Assembly: GCA_002296185.1 (NCBI GenBank)
Contig: DBHM01000006.1
Coordinates: 1,091-65,090 of the forward strand
Reading direction: 5' to 3'
Origin: Alphaproteobacteria bacterium UBA828
GTDB lineage: Bacteria; Pseudomonadota; Alphaproteobacteria; UBA828
Length of the DNA stretch: 64,000 nt
Shown here: positions 52,170-61,904 of the stretch, piece after piece
How the letters are laid out: every line of letters starts with the position of its first letter
How positions within the stretch are numbered: the first letter of the stretch is position 1
Notes under the pieces: model-generated
What the model saw: only the letters and a program-made list of their open reading frames with translations
Told to the model about the DNA's origin: nothing
Databases searched by the model: none
Program-made: the position numbers and the translations under genes

Positions 52170-53060
52170 TTATAAAATTTTTGGCTTGTAAAGCTGCCTT
52201 CCAGCGCAATTAATTTGCAATTCCTCTAACTGACATGTGCCTAAATCTGTAACTACAGCTCCACCATCCAAGTGCTCATAGAAAGCAATATTTGTCGGTC
52301 TTTTTCCGTTTGTAATTATTCTTCTATAAACATTACCCGAAGAATCTAATACTGTGACATTTCCCTGACCAAATACCGTACAATATAGGTTTCCATCATC
52401 ACCAAATGCCATACCATCAGGTCCAACAAAATCTTCGGGCTCACCTTCTATAACATTTCCGAAGGTCTCTTTCTGGGAGTCTTTATAAGAAAAAATATCG
52501 TAGACATATATATTTCCGGTTATAGTCTCATTTACATAAAGTCTATTCTGGTCATCAAATGCGATACCATTTGTAAATTTTAAATTTCTATCAATAACTC
52601 TTATAATATTTCCTTTTTTTGGATCAATCTCAAAAACACGGCCATTAAATGGACACGTCTTATAGTCTCCTCTGATACTCTGTCCATCTATGAAATCATC
52701 AGGCAGAATCCCGCTATCAGTCATATACAACAGACCATTAGGGCCAAACACGAGATCATTAGGCCATAAAAATGGGTCGCCTTTTGGGCCCTGAAAAGCC
52801 TTAATAATATCTCCATTTGGATGCATACATACTAAGGTTTCCCCCTCTCCCCCAGCAATCCATAAATTATTGTCACCATCTATTGTAAGCCCGTTTGGCC
52901 TACCTCCAGGAGATCCCACCTCATGCCGAATCCCCTGCTTATCTACACGAGAGACACATGACCTTTTCTTTGCCATTTCAACTAAATATATTTCACCAGT
53001 TGGTAGACACACGGGACCCTCAGGCTCTAATACTCCGTCGCAAATTACAGGACCTGCCAT
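52170..53060 (-). CDS. SMP-30/gluconolactonase/LRE-family beta-propeller protein
   Basis: 296 aa with repeated propeller blades carrying PNGL/NGIAFD/GPDGMAFGDDGNLY motifs. Confidence 0.75.
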   Translation of the reverse strand: MAGPVICDGVLEPEGPVCLPTGEIYLVEMAKKRSCVSRVDKQGIRHEVGSPGGRPNGLTIDGDNNLWIAGGEGETLVCMHPNGDIIKAFQGPKGDPFLWPNDLVFGPNGLLYMTDSGILPDDFIDGQSIRGDYKTCPFNGRVFEIDPKKGNIIRVIDRNLKFTNGIAFDDQNRLYVNETITGNIYVYDIFSYKDSQKETFGNVIEGEPEDFVGPDGMAFGDDGNLYCTVFGQGNVTVLDSSGNVYRRIITNGKRPTNIAFYEHLDGGAVVTDLGTCQLEELQINCAGRQLYKPKIL

Positions 53061-53140
53061 TTTTTAACCTCCATTAAATCTCTCTTCTAAAGAATAAGTA
53101 ACAAATCTATATAATAAAAACCTATTCTTTAGATAAATAA

Positions 53141-53851
53141 TTAAGTAATTCCAATAAATTCATCTATTACTTCTGGATCATCAAGTTGACCTGGCAGCAA
53201 CTGCCCAGTTAAAATACCTCGACGAATTATATATACCCTCTGCGCCACATCGGCCACAAATTCTAAATTTTGTTCGACAAGTACTATAGTCAATTTTTTT
53301 GATAGTCTCAGATTATTCAAAACTTCAGAAATCTCATCTACGATGGAAGGCTGAATGCCTTCTGTTGGCTCATCAAGTAGTAATAAGCTTGGACTTCCGC
53401 ACAAACACCTAGCCAAAGCTAATATTTGCTGCTCTCCACCACTCAATACACCCCCGCTTCTTTCTAAGAGCGGTTTTAAACGCGGTAAATACAAGAGTAT
53501 CTCATCTAAAATTTCATTTTCCCGTTTACGTGAACTTTCATGCATTAGAATACCAGTTCTTAGATTTTCCCTGACTGTCAAATTTGGAAAAATATCTCTA
53601 GATTGAGATACATAACCCACACCAGATAAATTTCTTTTATGTGAAGGAAGAGTTGTGATATCGAGACCTGCAAAATTTATAATGCCCTGCTCTGCCTTTA
53701 ATAAGCCAGCTAAAGACTTTAAGAGAGTTGTTTTGCCCATCCCGTTATTACCAAGAATCCCAACCGCCTCACCTTTAGAGACATTGAAGTTTACTCCCAT
53801 TAAAATTGGGATCCGGCCATAAGAAACTCTCAAATCTTTCACTACTAACAT
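53141..53851 (-). CDS. ABC transporter ATP-binding protein, UrtE/LivF-like (orphan pair)
   Basis: 236 aa with Walker A GNNGMGKTT, signature LSGGEQQ and Walker B LLLDEP. Confidence 0.85.
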   Translation of the reverse strand: MLVVKDLRVSYGRIPILMGVNFNVSKGEAVGILGNNGMGKTTLLKSLAGLLKAEQGIINFAGLDITTLPSHKRNLSGVGYVSQSRDIFPNLTVRENLRTGILMHESSRKRENEILDEILLYLPRLKPLLERSGGVLSGGEQQILALARCLCGSPSLLLLDEPTEGIQPSIVDEISEVLNNLRLSKKLTIVLVEQNLEFVADVAQRVYIIRRGILTGQLLPGQLDDPEVIDEFIGIT

Positions 53852-53856
53852 TCTAT

Positions 53857-54582
53857 CTAGGCACCCTTCTTGCCTAAATAAACATCCCTTACCAGAGAGT
53901 TATTCATTATAACATCAACCTTACCCTCAGCTAAAATAGTACCTTGATGAAAAACAGTTACTATATCAGCTATTGATCTCACAAAATGCATGTCATGTTC
54001 GACAATGATAAGTGAAGCAGATTTTTTAATTTCCTGGACAAGATAGGCAGTTTTTTCAGTTTCCTGTTTAGTCATTCCAGCGGTAGGCTCATCTAAAAGT
54101 ATTAGTTCTGGATTGCCACTCAAAACCATACCAATTTCAACCCATTGCCTATCACCATGTGATAACTGGCCAACTAAAGAGGACCTGAGATGAGTCACTC
54201 CAACTTTTTCCATAATACTATCGGTTAACTCATCAGCTGATCGCCCACCACAGAATCTACTGGCAGCTAACCAAATATTCTCCCTAACAGAAATTGCGTC
54301 GAAAACACTAGGTATCTGAGTTTTTATGCCAATTCCTAGATCTGATATTTGGTGGGTATGCAGCTTAGTAATATCACGCTCTTTAAAAAAAATCTGGCCT
54401 GAGCTAGATTTCTCCTGATGTGTTAAACACCTAAAAAAAGTACTCTTCCCTGCTCCATTTGGGCCAATCAGACAACGTAATTCTTTAGAAAAAATTTTGA
54501 AATTAACATTCTCAACAGCTGAAACCCCCCCAAATCTCTTGGTTAGGCCTTTGGTTTCAAGAAGGATATTCTCGCGACTCAT
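53857..54582 (-). CDS. ABC transporter ATP-binding protein, UrtD-like (orphan pair)
   Basis: 241 aa with Walker A GPNGAGKST and a UrtD-type signature (LSHGDRQWVEIGMVL). No permease or binding-protein gene is adjacent. Confidence 0.85.
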   Translation of the reverse strand: MSRENILLETKGLTKRFGGVSAVENVNFKIFSKELRCLIGPNGAGKSTFFRCLTHQEKSSSGQIFFKERDITKLHTHQISDLGIGIKTQIPSVFDAISVRENIWLAASRFCGGRSADELTDSIMEKVGVTHLRSSLVGQLSHGDRQWVEIGMVLSGNPELILLDEPTAGMTKQETEKTAYLVQEIKKSASLIIVEHDMHFVRSIADIVTVFHQGTILAEGKVDVIMNNSLVRDVYLGKKGA

Positions 54583-54947
54583 GAATATAATCTTTCAATA
54601 TCCGCTAGTTTATTAAGTAGTTAAGGCAATAAGATTGGCAAATAATATGCTATCAGAGTAATTATGTAAAAGATTTGTAAGTTAATAGGAGTGCTGAAAT
54701 ATTCTCAGATAATACAAATTACCAAGGTTGGTTAAAGTTTCTAAGAAAGATCCCATTACATAAGCAGTAAATTTGTATTTATAACTAATCATATAACTGC
54801 CAAAATAAACATAAATAATATTCATTATAAAATCTACATTTCGTATATTCTAAACATACGCTTAAGAAGTTAAAATAAAGTTGTTATATTTTGGTTATTT
54901 GATCAACATAACTAAATATATCCACCCGAGGTAAAGCGGAGATAAGA

Positions 54948-56387
54948 GTGGTAGGAATAAAAAAATTCGGGGCATACCTTCCTCAACGCCGACTGATTCG
55001 ATCATCAATAGCATCAGCTAATGCTTGGTTTGAGCCCTCATTATCTAGCTTATCTAGGGGTGAAAGAACAATGAGTAGCTGGGATGAGGACTCAATCACG
55101 ATGGCCGTAGAGGCAGCGAGAGATATGGGCAACTTAGAATCAATCACACAGATTATACTTGCATCTACCACTCACCCATTTTCCATTCGACAAAATTCTG
55201 TAATTGCTGCTGAGGCATTAAATCTAAAAACTAGCGTTAGATCAGCTGATGTTGGCGGATCATTAAGGTCATCAACATCAGCAATACTTAGTGGGCTAGA
55301 TAGCTCTAGAGCTAACTCCGAAGATACCTTAATTTTAACATCAGACAAACGTGTCGCTTTAGCGGGAAGCCCCACAGAAATGCTTTCAGGTGATGGAGCG
55401 GCGGGGTTTGTTGTTGGAAAAAATAACGTTATTGCCTCATACCTTGGTAGCTCCTCTTTATCCGCTGATTTTGTCGATCAGTTTCGTGCAAGTAATGAAC
55501 GTTATGACTATCTTTGGGAGGATCGATGGGTACGTGAAGAAGGATGGTTAAAACTCATTCCCCCAACCATCTCAAAGGCCTTAGAAAAGTCTGATGTCGA
55601 CCCATCGAAAGTTGATCATCTGATAATACCCAGCCAATTCCCTAGAGTAGCTGAGAAAATAGCTAAGATATGTGGCATCGAAGAAAAAGCACTTTGTGAG
55701 ACTCTTATGAATGAAGTGGGACAATGCGGAACTGCACACCCAGCTATTCTTTTGAGTCTAGTCCTCTCATCAGCAAAGCCAAATCAAATTATAGTAGCTA
55801 TAGGATTTGGGCAAGGTTGTGATGTCTTAGTGTTTAAGACTACAAATGAGATAAATAACTACAAACCATTAACAGGAGTAGAGGGTTGGCTAGCCAACAG
55901 AGTAGAGGAAACTAATTATGATAAATTTCTAACCTTTAATAATCTGATTCAAAGAGACCTTGGCAAAAGAGCAGAATTAGACAGGCCCCCTGCTTTGACT
56001 GCACAGTTCAGAAATAGAGAGGGGGTTACCGGTTTCCGTGGGGGAAGATGTAAAAAGTGCGAGACGATTCAGTATCCAAAATCTATATACTGCGTTAATC
56101 CAGAATGCAGAGCAAAAGATAGCCAAGGAGACTATCCTTTCTCAGAACTAAAAGGATATGTAAAAACTTTTACTGCTGACCATCTTGTATTTTCTATAGA
56201 CCCCCCTTCTTATTTTGGTTTAGTAGAATTTATCGGTGGTGGAAGAATGATGGTTGAATTTGCTGATGTTAATAATTCTGATTTTGATGTAGGTAAAGCT
56301 GTGAAAATGAGATTTAGAATTAAACATTTAGATGATAGACGAAATACACGGCAATATTTTTGGAAAGCCTGCCCAGTAAAAGAATAG
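54948..56387 (+). CDS. fusion protein: HMG-CoA-synthase/KAS-III-like thiolase-fold domain lacking the nucleophile Cys, plus C-terminal DUF35 zinc-ribbon/OB-fold domain
   Basis: 479 aa with a GTG start and a GGAG Shine-Dalgarno. The N-terminus (VGIKKFGAYLPQRRL...SWDEDSITMAVEAAR...ILASTTHPFSIRQNS...DVGGSLRSSTSAI) is collinear with archaeal-type HMGCS as I recall it. There is no Cys in residues 1-241. The C-terminus has CKKCETIQYPKSIYCVNPEC plus an OB-fold-like tail typical of DUF35. Confidence 0.65.
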   Translation: MVGIKKFGAYLPQRRLIRSSIASANAWFEPSLSSLSRGERTMSSWDEDSITMAVEAARDMGNLESITQIILASTTHPFSIRQNSVIAAEALNLKTSVRSADVGGSLRSSTSAILSGLDSSRANSEDTLILTSDKRVALAGSPTEMLSGDGAAGFVVGKNNVIASYLGSSSLSADFVDQFRASNERYDYLWEDRWVREEGWLKLIPPTISKALEKSDVDPSKVDHLIIPSQFPRVAEKIAKICGIEEKALCETLMNEVGQCGTAHPAILLSLVLSSAKPNQIIVAIGFGQGCDVLVFKTTNEINNYKPLTGVEGWLANRVEETNYDKFLTFNNLIQRDLGKRAELDRPPALTAQFRNREGVTGFRGGRCKKCETIQYPKSIYCVNPECRAKDSQGDYPFSELKGYVKTFTADHLVFSIDPPSYFGLVEFIGGGRMMVEFADVNNSDFDVGKAVKMRFRIKHLDDRRNTRQYFWKACPVKE

Positions 56388-56406
56388 ACAACTAGAGGTA
56401 AAAGAT

Positions 56407-57609
56407 ATGCCTGAAGGTATAAGAGATAAAGTTGCGATTATAGGAATGGGTTGCTCCAAATTTGGAGAACACTGGGACTTAGAACCATCAGATTTGATGT
56501 CAGAGGCCTTTGAGGAATGTCTTTTAGATAGTGGAATTGAGCGGTCCCAGATTGATGCTGCATGGCTCAGTACGGCTTTTGATGCTGTAAATGTTGGACC
56601 AAGCGCAATACCATTAGCAACGTCTCTTAGACTAGGTTATATTCCAGTTACACACGTAGAAAATATGTGCGCAAGTGGCACTGAGGCCTTTCGCGGAGCC
56701 TGCTATGCCGTAGCATCTGGAGCAGCAGAGTTTGCACTAGCTCTTGGAGTTGAAAAACTGAAAGATACTGGCTACGGAGGACTACCAGCCCGTACTCGAG
56801 GAGTAACAAACGACCTATTCTCGCCAACAGTTTCAGCACCGGGAGCTTTCGCTCAATTAGCATCGGGTTATCGCGGAACTCATAACGTAAGTCAATCAGA
56901 CTTAAAGCGCGCCATGGCACACGTTTCCGTTAAAAGTCATGCGAATGGTACGCTTAATTCTAAAGCTCATCTAAGACGAGAAATTACTATTGAACAAGCA
57001 TTAAAAGCACCAATGGTGGCTGACCCTATAGGACTTTTTGATTGCTGTGGAGTAAGTGATGGCGCAGCATGCGCAATTGTTACAACTCCAGAGATAGCAA
57101 TGCAATTAGGTAAATCTAATGTAATTTCAGTAAAAGCCTTACAACTCAGCGTATCTAATGGCGAAGAGTCGGGATTTAGTTCATGGGATGCCTCAAATTT
57201 TAAAACCACTCAAATTGCTGCTAATCGGGCTTATAAAGAAGCTAAGATAACAGATCCCATTTCAGAAATAAGTATGACAGAGGTACACGATTGTTTTTCA
57301 ATAACTGAATTAGTAACTATGGAGGACCTGGGACTAGCAAAAAAAGGTGAGGCATGGAAATCTATTCTTGACGGTGACTTTGATTCTTCAGGCCACACTC
57401 CCTGTCAAATTGATGGAGGATTAAAATGTTTTGGCCATCCAATTGGCGCCTCTGGTCTTCGAATGCTCTATGAAATATATCTCCAATTCAATAATCGTGC
57501 GGAAAAAAGACAGCTTAAAAACGTTAATTACGGGCTAACCCATAACCTTGGCGGACATCCAATTCAAAATGTTTGCAGCGTGGCAATTGTTGGATATTTC
57601 GACGGGTAA
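56407..57609 (+). CDS. SCPx-type (nonspecific lipid-transfer-protein-like) thiolase
   Basis: 400 aa with the catalytic Cys motif NMCASGTEAF, the His motif EVHDCFS and the C-terminal GGLKCFGHPIGASG. Confidence 0.8.
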   Translation: MPEGIRDKVAIIGMGCSKFGEHWDLEPSDLMSEAFEECLLDSGIERSQIDAAWLSTAFDAVNVGPSAIPLATSLRLGYIPVTHVENMCASGTEAFRGACYAVASGAAEFALALGVEKLKDTGYGGLPARTRGVTNDLFSPTVSAPGAFAQLASGYRGTHNVSQSDLKRAMAHVSVKSHANGTLNSKAHLRREITIEQALKAPMVADPIGLFDCCGVSDGAACAIVTTPEIAMQLGKSNVISVKALQLSVSNGEESGFSSWDASNFKTTQIAANRAYKEAKITDPISEISMTEVHDCFSITELVTMEDLGLAKKGEAWKSILDGDFDSSGHTPCQIDGGLKCFGHPIGASGLRMLYEIYLQFNNRAEKRQLKNVNYGLTHNLGGHPIQNVCSVAIVGYFDG

Positions 57610-57663
57610 TTTTTATATTTAACAGAAACTTGTTTAAAAAAATATTTTGGAAAGCCTAATTGA

Positions 57664-58503
57664 ATGGATTATAATGCATTAATAAATTTCAAAATTCCCC
57701 AAAAAAGGCAGAAAATAAATCCCTTAAATGCCGTTCAATACGCACTATCGATTGGATTAGGTCAAGACCCGATAGACACGTGGGAACTTCAATTTGTCGA
57801 TGAGGGCAATGGGCCAGAAATGATCCCGTCATACTGCACAGTACTTGGCCACCCAGGGTTCTGGCTATCCGACCCTAAGACTACTGTAGATTCTCAAAAA
57901 GTAGTCCATGTAGATCAAAAAATTAATATTAAAGGCTCTATACCAAAGTCTGGAATAGTCGTAGGTAAAACAAGAATAATTGAATTAGTTGATAAGGGCC
58001 TAGATAAAGGTGCACTCCTCTACTTGGAGAAGATTCTATCCAACGAGGATACTGGAGAAATAATTGCCATAGAAAACCGAACTCTCATGTTACGTGGCGA
58101 CGGAGGATATAATGGACCGAGCGGAAAAGCTAAGACAGTTGATAAATTCCCAACAGATAATCCAGATCATGTTATAGAAATTAACACCCGGCCAGAGCAG
58201 GCTCTAATCTATAGACTTAATGGTGACCCAAATCGCTTACATATTGATCCGGCGCATGCAAAAAAGGCCGGGTTTGAGAAACCAATCTTACACGGTCTAT
58301 GCACTTTTGGGATTGTCTGCCAAATACTACTGCGCACCTTACACAAAAATAATCATAGAAATTTTAGAGATATGTCAGCAAGATTTTCAAAGCCTGTATT
58401 CCCTGGAGAGCTAATAGAAATTAGTATATGGGAAAATGGTCACTTTAATGCAAAAGTAAAAGAACGTGATGTAATTGTATTAAGTAATGGTTTTATATCT
58501 TAG
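57664..58503 (+). CDS. MaoC-like (R)-specific enoyl-CoA hydratase 2, double hot-dog
   Basis: 279 aa with a hydratase-2 motif region (YRLNGDPNRLHIDPAHAKKAGF). The length fits an N-terminal non-catalytic plus a C-terminal catalytic hot-dog. Confidence 0.75.
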   Translation: MDYNALINFKIPQKRQKINPLNAVQYALSIGLGQDPIDTWELQFVDEGNGPEMIPSYCTVLGHPGFWLSDPKTTVDSQKVVHVDQKINIKGSIPKSGIVVGKTRIIELVDKGLDKGALLYLEKILSNEDTGEIIAIENRTLMLRGDGGYNGPSGKAKTVDKFPTDNPDHVIEINTRPEQALIYRLNGDPNRLHIDPAHAKKAGFEKPILHGLCTFGIVCQILLRTLHKNNHRNFRDMSARFSKPVFPGELIEISIWENGHFNAKVKERDVIVLSNGFIS

Positions 58504-58533
58504 ATCAATTTCAAGATAAAATAGGAGGATAGG

Positions 58534-59439
58534 GTGAACAACGGTAAAGTAGCAATTGTTTCAGGTGCAGGTGGTGGTATCGGAAGGGAGATTGCTCTAG
58601 AATTGGCTAGAACAAATGCTTCAGTAGTTATAAATGATATTGGCGTATCAGTTACAGGAGAAGGTGGCTCATCCAATCCCGCTGAAGAAACAAAAGCCCT
58701 ATTAGATGAATTGCGTGTCAAATCTGTCGTAGATACTAATTCCGTAGATACTTGGGAAGGCGCTCAATCAATCGTAGAAACCGCACTCAAAACATTTGGA
58801 CGAATTGATATCATAGTTAACAATGCTGGTATTTTAAGAGATACAATTTTTCACAAGATGACTCCTGAACAATGGCTATCAGTTATAAATGTACATCTAA
58901 ATGGAAGTTTTTTTCTAAGTAGGTCTGCAGCAGAGCACTTTAGAAATCAACAATCAGGCTCCTACGTACACATGACAAGTACGTCAGGCCTAATAGGAAA
59001 TTTTGGGCAGGCGAACTACTCAGCTGCAAAACTTGGTATCTGTGCACTTTCAAAATCTATAGCCCTTGATATGAAAAGATTTAATGTCCACTCAAATTGT
59101 ATAGCACCTTTTGCATGGAGCCGAATGACAAACGAAATACCAGCTGACAGTGAAGAACAAAAACTAAGAGTTGAGAAACTTAAGAAAATGACTCCATCCA
59201 AAAACGCACCCCTTGCAGCCTTCTTAGCATCAGATAATGCCAAAAAAATAACTGGTCAAATTTTTGGCGTAAGAAATAATGAAATCTTTCTATTCAACGC
59301 CAATAGGCCTATAAGGAGCGTACAACGTAATGAAGGATGGGATTTGGAATCTATAGAGGAACATGCAATTCCTTCTCTTAAAGGCAACTTTGTTCCATTG
59401 GATCGATCAGGGGACATATTCAGCTGGGATCCAATATAG
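58534..59439 (+). CDS. SDR, MFE-2-type (3R)-hydroxyacyl-CoA dehydrogenase-like
   Basis: 301 aa with a GTG start and VAIVSGAGGGIGREIA. The block FGRIDIIVNNAGILRDTIF...TSTSGLIGNFGQANYSAAKLG is nearly collinear with the HSD17B4 dehydrogenase domain as I recall it. Confidence 0.85.
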   Translation: MNNGKVAIVSGAGGGIGREIALELARTNASVVINDIGVSVTGEGGSSNPAEETKALLDELRVKSVVDTNSVDTWEGAQSIVETALKTFGRIDIIVNNAGILRDTIFHKMTPEQWLSVINVHLNGSFFLSRSAAEHFRNQQSGSYVHMTSTSGLIGNFGQANYSAAKLGICALSKSIALDMKRFNVHSNCIAPFAWSRMTNEIPADSEEQKLRVEKLKKMTPSKNAPLAAFLASDNAKKITGQIFGVRNNEIFLFNANRPIRSVQRNEGWDLESIEEHAIPSLKGNFVPLDRSGDIFSWDPI

Positions 59440-59478
59440 TTGGAAAGCAAATAGCAGTAGCGCCGCTCAATACATGAG

Positions 59479-59778
59479 CTATTCAATCAACTCTACCATT
59501 AACCCCTTCTCCCATTTACCTTTGATTACACTACCGTCAAATTTTATCTCAATGCCAAGACCATCTTTTTTCCCATCTAAAAACTCTCCATAATAAGTAC
59601 CGGCTAGTCCTGCTCGCAAAACCCCAAAGCATTTAGTCCATTTAGTATGGTCTCCACCCATACATCTTGTGACTTCAGAGCTTTCTACTTGAGCTGCAGA
59701 TAGTATAAGAAAAGCTCCAAGAACTAATAAAATATACCTTGAAACCATCTGCCATGAAACTGGTAAGCTTTTTATCAT
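59479..59778 (-). CDS. secreted MORN-repeat protein
   Basis: 99 aa with an N-terminal signal-like helix and MORN-type units (YYGEFLDGKKDGLGIEIKFDGSVIKGKWEKG). Confidence 0.55.
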   Translation of the reverse strand: MIKSLPVSWQMVSRYILLVLGAFLILSAAQVESSEVTRCMGGDHTKWTKCFGVLRAGLAGTYYGEFLDGKKDGLGIEIKFDGSVIKGKWEKGLMVELIE

Positions 59779-59832
59779 ATTTCCTTACTACCCTTCATTT
59801 ATAAACCCAACTAAGATCTAATACCCAAAGAA

Positions 59833-60453
59833 TTAATATTCAACCGGCTCAGGATCTAAAAATCTCCAAAGATACCAGGTGGCAACAGATCGCCATGGCC
59901 TCCATTTATCTGCGATTAATAAAATATCATTATCATCCAAAATATTTTTTTTGGAGTAAAGTTCGGTTATGGCTCGGCGCAACCCCAAATCACTCATTGG
60001 TAAAATATCAGGCCGAGCTAAATAAAAAATTAAGAACATCTCCGCTGTCCACCTACCAATACCTCGATATAACGTTAATTCCTTTATAATGGATTCATCA
60101 TCTTGATTATCCCAAATTTCTGGTTTTATTTTCCCGCTTTCAAATGATTCAGCCAACATATAAATATAAGTACTTTTCTGCCTTGTAATACCACATTCCC
60201 TTAATATATCTCGACCAGCTTGTAATACCAAACTAGGCGTCACCTCATGCAAGCGCCCCTCAAGACGCGACCAAATTGCAGATGCTGATCTCACAGAAAT
60301 TTGTTGTCCAACAATTGATCTCACTAAGGTGAAGAAAGGGTCCCCTCTTGAAACCAAAAAAACATCCGGATTATCAAAAATAATTTTAGAAAGAATACAG
60401 TCCGAATTACTTAGATCAATGATTGCACTCTTCCAATAATCTGGTTCGCTCAT
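59833..60453 (-). CDS. HhH-GPD DNA glycosylase (DNA-3-methyladenine glycosylase II-like)
   Basis: 206 aa with a helix-hairpin-helix (LYRGIGRWTAEMFLIF) followed by a catalytic-Asp region (LPMSDLGLRRAI). Confidence 0.8.
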   Translation of the reverse strand: MSEPDYWKSAIIDLSNSDCILSKIIFDNPDVFLVSRGDPFFTLVRSIVGQQISVRSASAIWSRLEGRLHEVTPSLVLQAGRDILRECGITRQKSTYIYMLAESFESGKIKPEIWDNQDDESIIKELTLYRGIGRWTAEMFLIFYLARPDILPMSDLGLRRAITELYSKKNILDDNDILLIADKWRPWRSVATWYLWRFLDPEPVEY

Positions 60454-60496: not shown

Positions 60497-61318
60497 TTAT
60501 TTCTTTATTATTTTTTTCTTTGTTTTTTTCTTTGGAACTTTTTTTTGACATTTATTTTGAAAATTTTCTACCTGTGCCTGCGCTGCATTTGCTAATAACT
60601 TAGTATCACTTCCAGCAATAACAAATTGGAAACCCTTACGATAAGTCCATTCTGTTGTTTTACCAGGACGTGTTACAGTGCCTAAAAATTTCCCTGTTTC
60701 TAGCATTCTAGATTCACACTTTGTATAAAGTCGCTTTACGGTCGGGTCCTCAGCCTTAAGTACTTTACCTATACTTGCTGAAATATCGCTTGGCCCCATA
60801 AAAAGCATGTCCACCCCTGGTACAGCGGCAATTTCTGGAATATTGTTGATGGCTTCTTCTGTCTCGATCTGACAAATTACAATTATCTTTTCTTTCAGTT
60901 CAGATAAATACTCATCTAACCTCATACCCCACCTTGAACAACGAGCCGCATGAGGTGCAACACCACGGATTCCATCAGGTGGATAATGACATGCTGCAAC
61001 AGCTGCACGGGCTTCATCAGCATTTTGAACATATGGTACAATTATTCCCATAACGCCAATATCAAGTGCTCTCTTTATATAAACAGAGTCATTCCAAGGT
61101 ACACGCATGATAGGGGTGGGGCCATCTTCACCCAAAGCTTGAAGTATACTTATTGCTCCTTGGAGATGGCCAGGGCCGTGCTCATGGTCAATTACAACAG
61201 CATCATAACCAGCAGTCGCAACAATTTCAGCATTGATTGGATTCCCTGAAGATAGCCAACACCCAATTACTGGATTACCTCTTTTTAACTTCTTTTTGAA
61301 TGTATTATTGAGTGACAT
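60497..61318 (-). CDS. HpcH/HpaI-family aldolase
   Basis: GCWLSSGNPINAEIVATAGYDAVVIDHEHG and MRVPWND are typical of the family. I placed the start at ATG 61318 with an AAGGAA Shine-Dalgarno. It has an unusual Lys-rich C-terminal tail. Confidence 0.8.
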   Translation of the reverse strand: MSLNNTFKKKLKRGNPVIGCWLSSGNPINAEIVATAGYDAVVIDHEHGPGHLQGAISILQALGEDGPTPIMRVPWNDSVYIKRALDIGVMGIIVPYVQNADEARAAVAACHYPPDGIRGVAPHAARCSRWGMRLDEYLSELKEKIIVICQIETEEAINNIPEIAAVPGVDMLFMGPSDISASIGKVLKAEDPTVKRLYTKCESRMLETGKFLGTVTRPGKTTEWTYRKGFQFVIAGSDTKLLANAAQAQVENFQNKCQKKVPKKKTKKKIIKK

Positions 61319-61418
61319 AGTTAAGTTCCTTATCAATTTCATTTAATGTAAAATAAAACGTCTGCTTGTTACTTTCAACTTATGAAGATAGCATCCTAAT
61401 CTGCAAGGAGGAAATACA

Positions 61419-61904
61419 ATGAATTATATTGTCACTCGCAGAGCCAAAACTACCCATCTTACTGACCCAACTTCAGTCTTTTTAATCGACGAAAGCACAG
61501 CTCATCTTGCAACATTAACCGCAAGATTCTTCAGTAAAGCCCTTAATACACGTATGTCTTCGTATGGTGTCTCATCAGGCCAATTACCACTACTACTCCA
61601 CCTTTGGGAAGACAATGGAATATCGCAAAAGGACCTAAGTCGGCGTGTAAATATAGAAGAACCCACCGCAGCTAATACGCTAAATCGCATGGAGCGTGAT
61701 GGACTTATTGAAAGAAAACGGAACCCTTTAGACCGAAGAGAGATTAGAGTGCATTTAACTGAAAAAGGAGAAAGTTTAAAAAATGATATAATTCCTTTTG
61801 CTAAAGAGGTTAATAGCCTTGCAACTCACGGTATGTCACCCGAAGATAAAAAACGACTGAACAGCTTACTTGCATATGTAATCTCAAGACTTGCCTCTAT
61901 TTAA
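61419..61904 (+). CDS. MarR-family transcriptional regulator
   Basis: 161 aa with a winged-helix region (ISQKDLSRRVNIEEPTAANTLNRMERDGLIERKRNPLDRREIRVHLTEKG). It is divergent from the aldolase gene. Confidence 0.85.
   Translation: MNYIVTRRAKTTHLTDPTSVFLIDESTAHLATLTARFFSKALNTRMSSYGVSSGQLPLLLHLWEDNGISQKDLSRRVNIEEPTAANTLNRMERDGLIERKRNPLDRREIRVHLTEKGESLKNDIIPFAKEVNSLATHGMSPEDKKRLNSLLAYVISRLASI

Follow-up and report, generated by a model that had tools for sequence, protein, structure and literature searches.

A dead HMGS-like/DUF35 fusion protein and its neighboring thiolase in a four-gene operon with MFE-2-type enzymes of Alphaproteobacteria bacterium UBA828

Described systems and the UBA828 locus

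Bacterial loci in which a 3-hydroxy-3-methylglutaryl-CoA (HMG-CoA) synthase-like domain devoid of its catalytic residues is fused to a DUF35 domain and encoded beside a thiolase were described in January 2026 from Pseudomonas fluorescens (Liao et al., Nat Commun 2026;17:2196; PMC12960953). Here we analyze an ordinary further case of this type, a gene pair of Alphaproteobacteria bacterium UBA828 that lies in a 64,000-nucleotide (nt) stretch of contig DBHM01000006.1 (positions 1,091 to 65,090, forward strand; hereafter the window). In the P. fluorescens fusion protein, HMGS-DUF35, the catalytic Glu, Cys, His and Asn of HMG-CoA synthase (HMGS or HMGCS; the E-C-H-N positions) are absent, and the adjacent thiolase, PfACAT, keeps its Cys, HDxF and GHx motifs. 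The purified PfACAT/HMGS-DUF35 complex cleaves acetoacetyl-CoA thiolytically and makes neither HMG-CoA nor acetoacetyl-CoA from acetyl-CoA, and the substitution H294Y in the HDxF motif of PfACAT abolishes thiolysis (PMC12960953). The same study mined 1,030 bacterial HMGS/ACAT/DUF35 loci, 1,001 of which lack secondary-metabolite genes.

Several other systems share modules with the UBA828 pair. The archaeal thiolase/HMGCS/DUF35 complex (PDB 6esq) is homologous in all three (HMGCS, E 5e-17, TM 0.85; thiolase, E 3e-52; DUF35, over residues 362-479 of the fusion), but its HMGCS is active (E82, C114, H238, N270), the complex channels acetoacetyl-CoA to HMG-CoA for the mevalonate pathway, and DUF35 forms a chain of its own. 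Among solved structures, the N-terminal domain is closest to PhlA of PhlACB (PpATase, Pseudomonas protegens) and MucA of MucABC (SmaATase, Streptococcus macacae) (PDB 5m3k/5mg5, 9skh, 9vbo/9vbt; E 1e-20, TM 0.80-0.83), which, like it, have lost the catalytic Glu and Cys; they have the assembly role that we propose for the UBA828 domain, and a DUF35 protein connects them with the thiolase. PhlA, in which Gly115 and Cys83 replace the catalytic Cys and Glu, is required together with PhlB for a folded, functional dodecamer, and MucB by itself is insoluble and inactive. Both complexes consist of three separate proteins, whereas in UBA828 the HMGS-like and DUF35 parts form one chain; their thiolase subunit is without HDxF, carries out Friedel-Crafts acetylation of small molecules and is encoded in antibiotic gene clusters, whereas the UBA828 thiolase keeps HDCF.

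A dependence on a DUF35 partner is also known from degradative thiolase-fold enzymes of SCP2 type that are encoded in beta-oxidation-like operons, namely BbsAB (benzoylsuccinyl-CoA thiolase, whose BbsB matches the UBA828 thiolase at E 1e-35) and Ltp2/Sal-ChsH2/Shy. These lack an HMGS-like domain; their DUF35 is either free (BbsA) or carried on a MaoC hydratase (ChsH2, Shy), and Ltp2 and Sal are aldolases. Finally, the hydratase 2, (3R)-dehydrogenase and SCP2-type thiolase of peroxisomal MFE-2 and SCPx are the best or near-best structural relatives of three UBA828 enzymes, but in the eukaryotic system MFE-2 combines hydratase and dehydrogenase in one protein, SCP2 is joined to the thiolase, and there is no DUF35 or HMGS-like partner.

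The UBA828 pair shares with PfACAT/HMGS-DUF35 the single-chain combination of a dead HMGS-like domain and DUF35 and an adjacent thiolase with Cys, HDxF (its His is residue 294 in both thiolases) and GHx, with no polyketide synthase (PKS) or nonribosomal peptide synthetase (NRPS) gene nearby; the assignment to this type rests on these shared defining features rather than on a direct alignment. An earlier note on this DNA, made from sequence, had proposed that the arrangement was an undescribed variant of the thiolase/DUF35 system, a claim that fails because the same architecture has been described and assayed in P. fluorescens (PMC12960953). The UBA828 locus differs from that account in a setting absent from the paper's discussion: fusion and thiolase are the first two genes of an operon that continues with an MFE-2-type hydratase and dehydrogenase. 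The UBA828 fusion differs from its own family, which is common in Proteobacteria, by the loss of a conserved cysteine, Cys43. We consider it probable that the fusion is a non-catalytic assembly or clamp subunit of a degradative thiolase complex that closes an (R)-specific, MFE-2/SCPx-like beta-oxidation cycle.

Architecture of the fusion protein and loss of its catalytic residues

The fusion gene and its parts are the following.

54948..56387, forward strand: gene for the 479-residue fusion protein (dead HMGS-like domain plus DUF35), GTG start with a GGAG ribosome-binding site upstream
54948..55862, forward strand: HMGCS/PhlA-like thiolase-fold domain, residues 1-305 (phmmer alignments, family column counts, Foldseek)
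55863..56030, forward strand: linker and helical lead-in of the DUF35 module, residues 306-361 (alignment columns, AlphaFold model)
56031..56123, forward strand: rubredoxin-like zinc ribbon, residues 362-392 (Pfam zf-ChsH2, 6esq_E match)
56124..56384, forward strand: OB fold of DUF35, residues 393-479 (Pfam OB_ChsH2_C, 6esq_E, beta-rich model)

The open reading frame (ORF) is genuine. The layout proposed for its product in the earlier note, an N-terminal part resembling archaeal HMGCS and a C-terminal four-Cys ribbon with an OB-like tail typical of DUF35, is borne out by Pfam, by PDB matches and by a structure model. Pfam places ACP_syn_III_C at residues 212-291, zf-ChsH2 at 363-390 (25.3 bits, above the cut-off of 23.2) and OB_ChsH2_C at 402-457 (26.7 bits, marginally below the cut-off of 27.1). 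The C-terminus has the composition by which DUF35 is recognized (PF12172 plus PF01796; a four-Cys rubredoxin-like ribbon, then an OB fold): the ribbon motif CKKCETIQYPKSIYCVNPEC occupies residues 368-387, with C368, C371, C382 and C387 invariant across 70 homologues (the sample for all residue counts below), the archaeal DUF35 chain 6esq_E aligns with residues 362-479 (E 8.5e-4), and the model has a beta-barrel at residues 393-476. N323, Y324, G339, R341, E343 and R355 are invariant in the linker and lead-in, in which model confidence (pLDDT) is low around residues 340-360.

The archaeal HMGCS model NF003274 (NCBIfam) spans residues 2-335 of the fusion at 142.8 bits, against a cut-off of 244, and the score on TIGR00748, also for archaeal HMGCS, is 95.7 against 353, which places the protein outside the HMG-CoA synthase equivalog. 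Nor is it a member of KAS III/FabH (TIGR00747, 28.7 bits against 292), and its nucleophile position lacks a Cys. The best PDB matches of the N-terminal domain are PhlA (9skh_A, 5m3k_A; E about 1e-20), with further matches to MucA (9vbo_A) and to the archaeal HMGCS chain 6esq_I (E 5e-17); those to PhlA and 6esq_I cover residues 2-305. An AlphaFold2 monomer model built on the homologue alignment is single and compact (pLDDT 89.3, pTM 0.92), and Foldseek ranks PhlA, archaeal HMGCS and MucA (target-normalised TM 0.80-0.86) above bacterial HMGCS and FabH.

All four E-C-H-N positions are replaced in the UBA828 fusion. We mapped them by phmmer alignments to 6esq_I and PhlA, in high-confidence regions. 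Archaeal GSESHPY aligns with ASTTHPF, so that Glu82 corresponds to T74 (nt 55167-55169), the first T of ASTT; EFACKAGT aligns with GGSLRSST, pairing Cys114 with L106 (nt 55263-55265); CVFHQPN aligns with LIIPSQF, pairing His238 with P228 (nt 55629-55631); and LGNTYSG aligns with VGQCGTA, pairing Asn270 with Q259 (nt 55722-55724). The earlier note had recognized ASTT at the Glu-type box (residues 72-75) and GGSLRSS at the expected Cys site; both are there, the latter at residues 103-109 and nt 55254-55274, 3 nt off the position then given. The loss of the Glu/Cys/His triad that it anticipated, and the assignment of the fold, are confirmed by both sequence (the phmmer alignments) and structure (the AlphaFold/Foldseek match).

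The replacement extends to the whole family, in which these positions are non-catalytic in all 70 homologues. Position 74 is T throughout; position 106 is Q in 44, L in 23 and M in 3; position 228 is P in 58, A in 11 and T in 1; and position 259 is variable. PhlA has C, G, Q and D at the four positions, the substitutions made in the 'mut4' variant of Liao et al. (PMC12960953).

Could a cysteine at another position take over? The fusion has cysteines solely at residues 242, 250, 260, 291, 368, 371, 382, 387 and 475, so that the statement that residues 1-241 contain none was exact. In the family, the sole highly conserved Cys of the N-terminal domain is Cys43, at a non-canonical site (xMCNWDED), carried by 67 of the 70 members; the UBA828 protein has Ser43 (AGT, nt 55074-55076), a residue that recurs on 23 independent contigs, and the other exceptions are Ala or Gly. 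The complete absence of Cys from the N-terminal domain is accordingly a trait of the UBA828 lineage and not of the family, because most members have Cys43. A natural variant without Cys43 argues against this residue as a relocated nucleophile, and we rejected a catalytic Cys supplied from a shifted position, given the Ser here and the Ala or Gly in other members; as judged from these sequences, Cys43 is dispensable and no shifted Cys rescues catalysis. A selenocysteine in one relative (G224), suggested by an in-frame TGA flag, was likewise rejected, the TGA being an upstream stop codon.

The dead domain is strongly conserved, with 36 invariant residues, and conservation peaks in two stretches, residues 42-59 and 186-202. 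R107, which adjoins the position of the lost Cys, is shared by 69 of the 70 members. The conserved motif DFxDxFR...DYxWEERWIRDEG (residues 171-205, nt 55458-55562) coincides with the sole low-confidence stretch of the dead domain in the monomer model, which suggests that this segment may become ordered upon contact with a partner or ligand.

An alternative in keeping with this conservation is that the HMGS-like domain is not inert, and that a remodelled pocket (invariant T74, R107, D149, DYxWEERW) binds CoA, part of the acyl chain or a second ligand, thereby setting the specificity of the thiolase, regulating it or even having a new activity. The 36 invariant residues, the invariance of the replacement residue T74 and the near-universal R107 are consistent with it, as is the shared interfacial CoA chamber, which is kept in the dead-HMGS complexes PpATase and SmaATase. 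So is the location of the most conserved motif: the monomer model is disordered nowhere else, and a stretch that folds when it meets a partner or ligand would be expected to look like this. However, several invariants (DED, P-F/Y, DxxDFxR, R193, K202) are also found in active archaeal HMGCS and may be merely structural, Cys43 is dispensable, and in the PhlACB structures the substrate is touched by residues of PhlC, the thiolase subunit, alone. We regard a non-inert domain as decidedly unlikely. The reading of the domain as a non-catalytic scaffold, already put forward in the earlier note, is well supported: all catalytic residues are lost, DUF35 is covalently fused, and an intact thiolase is nearly always encoded directly downstream. 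That such a scaffold may present substrate to the thiolase, or gate its access, is a conjecture of the same note.

The thiolase, the operon and the family

The genes that follow the fusion on the same strand are these.

56407..57609, forward strand: SCP2/archaeal-type thiolase, 400 residues (NF004810, motifs, PDB matches), with its own GAGG ribosome-binding site
57664..58503, forward strand: MFE-2-type (R)-specific enoyl-CoA hydratase 2, double hot-dog fold (Pfam MFE-2_hydrat-2_N plus MaoC)
58534..59439, forward strand: MFE-2/17beta-HSD4-type (3R)-hydroxyacyl-CoA dehydrogenase of the short-chain dehydrogenase/reductase (SDR) family (NF005861, 246 bits)

The thiolase is, as had been noted, the next gene downstream, of SCPx/SCP2 type and intact in all its motifs; the gap after the fusion stop is 19 nt and not 20. 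It scores 650 bits on NF004810 (cut-off 403), and has the nucleophile C88 in C-A-S (nt 56668-56670), H294-D-C-F (57286-57297) and G343-H344-P345 (57433-57441). Its best PDB matches are the archaeal ACATs 7yvy and 6esq_A (E 1e-52 to 1e-54), followed by SCP2 thiolases and BbsB. A second SCP2-type thiolase of 411 residues is encoded in the same genome (L082, 1501-2736, reverse strand), with NACASAS, HDAT instead of HDCF, and KGHPIGATG; its gene is close to the end of a contig, and the flanking sequence examined shows no DUF35 gene.

These matches bear on the idea that the pair is a Friedel-Crafts-type C-acyltransferase acting on a small-molecule acceptor, as PhlACB and MucABC are. PhlA is indeed the best match of the N-terminal domain in both sequence and structure. 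The thiolase, however, keeps the HDxF that PhlC and MucB have lost, and these two match it at E 1e-13 to 1e-14 only, against the far stronger archaeal ACATs. The locus neighbors are ABC ATPases, an SGL lactonase-like gene, MaoC, SDR, HhH-GPD, an HpaI-type aldolase and a MarR regulator, and there are no PKS/NRPS or other secondary-metabolite genes in this neighborhood. A Friedel-Crafts role is therefore highly improbable, and a degradative thiolase with its assembly subunit accounts better for the pair.

The pairing of fusion and thiolase is conserved. Among 75 loci with enough downstream sequence, drawn from many proteobacterial orders, at least 61 have an orthologous thiolase directly downstream on the same strand; in 10 further loci the thiolase is nearby or was miscounted through over-extended ORFs, and in 4 there is none. 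The median identity to the UBA828 proteins in these loci is 68% for the thiolase versus 46% for the fusion. The fused architecture itself is matched by more than 2,282 database proteins, the best 120 of which are all 436-499 residues long and nearly all have the same domain set, and relatives are encoded in at least 598 species-representative genomes. Its spread is patchy: a sample of 300 genomes of the phylum contained it in 4, and it is present in 7 of 18 from the source organism's own family. Plasmids or chromids also carry it, in 34 records from Sphingobium, Rhodococcus, Novosphingobium, Variovorax, Azoarcus and others.

In UBA828, the fusion, thiolase, hydratase 2 and SDR genes form a four-gene operon, with gaps of 54 nt between thiolase and hydratase and 30 nt between hydratase and SDR; it ends after the SDR gene because the next gene is convergent. 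The same arrangement is found on 23 independent marine metagenome contigs that carry an identical fusion protein. A promoter and terminator scan of 54500-59900 gave the same counts as shuffled sequence. The hydratase, with the motif YRLNGDPNRLHIDP, has the hydratase-2 domain of human MFE-2 as its best PDB match (1s9c, E 3e-43), and the SDR has the (3R)-hydroxyacyl-CoA dehydrogenase of Candida MFE-2 (2et6, E 1e-92), followed by 1gz6 and 1zbq (17beta-HSD4). The SDR has the catalytic motif S...YSAAK, and its beta-strand 2 ends with an Asp (VVINDIG). An Asp in this position favors NAD over NADP, and the UBA828 enzyme is predicted to prefer NAD.

Orthologues of the SDR lie within 6 kb of the fusion in 27 of the 75 loci, and those of the MaoC hydratase in 21, in variable order; on a megaplasmid of Sphingomonas paeninsulae (NZ_CP032828.1; L089, 7211-11665), for example, the order is permuted to SDR-MaoC-fusion-thiolase. 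Other recurrent neighbors are acyl-CoA dehydrogenases, crotonases, acyl-CoA ligases and family-III CoA-transferases, and together these are a catabolic signature. A phytanoyl-CoA dioxygenase family gene and enoyl-CoA hydratases also lie near the four-gene set of S. paeninsulae.

The thiolase could, conversely, run in the biosynthetic direction, with the thiolase/DUF35 pair joining acetyl-CoA to an acyl-CoA in a condensation whose product, still on CoA, would be reduced and dehydrated by the SDR and MaoC enzymes, by analogy with the acyl carrier protein-independent archaeal fatty-acid synthase of Sulfolobus acidocaldarius or with the supply of (R)-3-hydroxyacyl-CoA for polyhydroxyalkanoate (PHA). 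The archaeal synthase does use a ketothiolase/DUF35 pair together with an (R)-specific SDR and a MaoC dehydratase, and the UBA828 hydratase and SDR share its (R) stereochemistry. However, the operon has no enoyl reductase, the SDR Asp predicts NAD and not NADPH, acyl-CoA dehydrogenases, acyl-CoA ligases and CoA-transferases recur beside family members elsewhere, and PfACAT/HMGS-DUF35 yields no condensation product from acetyl-CoA (PMC12960953). Both biosynthetic versions seem unlikely to us, and we favor the degradative direction.

In Marinobacter litoralis (L027, 726-13446) and Vreelandella arctica (L032, 2244-10939), the fusion and thiolase genes are set amid three acyl-CoA dehydrogenases, a family-III CoA-transferase and a MaoC-like gene, along with a CitE/RipC-like lyase and a mesaconyl-CoA isomerase-like gene (TIGR04253; PDB 8apq, E 1e-145). 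This points to a pathway in the gammaproteobacterial loci that leads to a C5-dicarboxylyl-CoA and on via citramalyl-CoA to pyruvate and acetyl-CoA. The CoA-transferase-III neighbors in these loci are mesaconyl-CoA isomerase-like and not racemase-like, and the idea of an alpha-methylacyl-CoA racemase (AMACR) was rejected.

Two genes beyond the UBA828 operon, at 60497-61904 of the window, an HpaI-type 4-hydroxy-2-oxoacid aldolase gene is divergent from a gene for a MarR-family regulator. The aldolase (60497-61342) reaches 225 of the 369 bits that TIGR02311 requires. We rejected a link between this HpcH-family gene and the CitE/mesaconyl-CoA context of Marinobacter, since it encodes an HpaI-type aldolase and not a CitE-type CoA-ester lyase; the UBA828 genome (77% completeness) has no mesaconyl-CoA isomerase orthologue. 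Upstream of the fusion gene, across an AT-rich spacer of 365 nt (54583-54947), lie divergent genes (52170-54582, reverse strand), namely two UrtD/UrtE-like ABC ATPase genes and an SMP-30/gluconolactonase-like gene, without a permease or binding protein.

The predicted complex and its meaning

In the mechanism that we favor, the HMGS-like domain, which keeps the thiolase fold without any E-C-H-N residue, would be the partner subunit of the adjacent thiolase, and the fused DUF35, zinc ribbon and OB fold, would act as the clamp that joins HMGS-like and thiolase dimers, as in the archaeal, PhlACB and MucABC complexes. The thiolase would perform all chemistry through Cys88, the His and Cys of HDCF, and His344. 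By analogy with PfACAT/HMGS-DUF35, the reaction would be the thiolytic cleavage of a 3-oxoacyl-CoA rather than a condensation, and the four genes would constitute a beta-oxidation module like that of peroxisomes (MFE-2/SCPx-type), whose substrate is probably an acyl-CoA that is branched or difficult in some other way.

Several points weigh against this account. The SDR and MaoC genes are linked to the fusion in about one third of loci, so that the beta-oxidation partnership is not universal, and the UBA828 operon itself contains no acyl-CoA dehydrogenase or ligase gene. The complex of fusion and thiolase is itself a predicted association. Acetoacetyl-CoA, the single substrate assayed, was assayed in P. 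fluorescens (PMC12960953) and need not be the physiological one. Finally, so many invariant residues exceed what a passive scaffold would strictly need, and make a role in ligand or CoA binding possible.

As a discovery the UBA828 pair carries little weight, its domain arrangement, its missing catalytic residues and thiolysis by such a complex all being already in print (PMC12960953). The interest of the family lies in two questions, namely what its physiological substrate is and why the partner of a degradative thiolase should be 'dead' and yet so strongly conserved. The locus itself contributes a natural variant without Cys43 and, from a small marine genome, an uncluttered operon of four genes that includes MFE-2-type enzymes. 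In one speculative reading, to which we give rather low credence, the dead HMGS-like domain is no vestige and instead is the half that determines specificity: its pocket (T74, R107, DYxWEERWIRDEG) would face the shared CoA chamber and accommodate a portion of a 3-oxoacyl-CoA that is bulky, branched or carboxylated, which would make the module a bacterial counterpart of peroxisomal MFE-2/SCPx. If this were true, the module would be retained even in streamlined marine genomes for the use of isoprenoid-derived (e.g., phytol, pristanate) or alkyl-dicarboxylate carbon.

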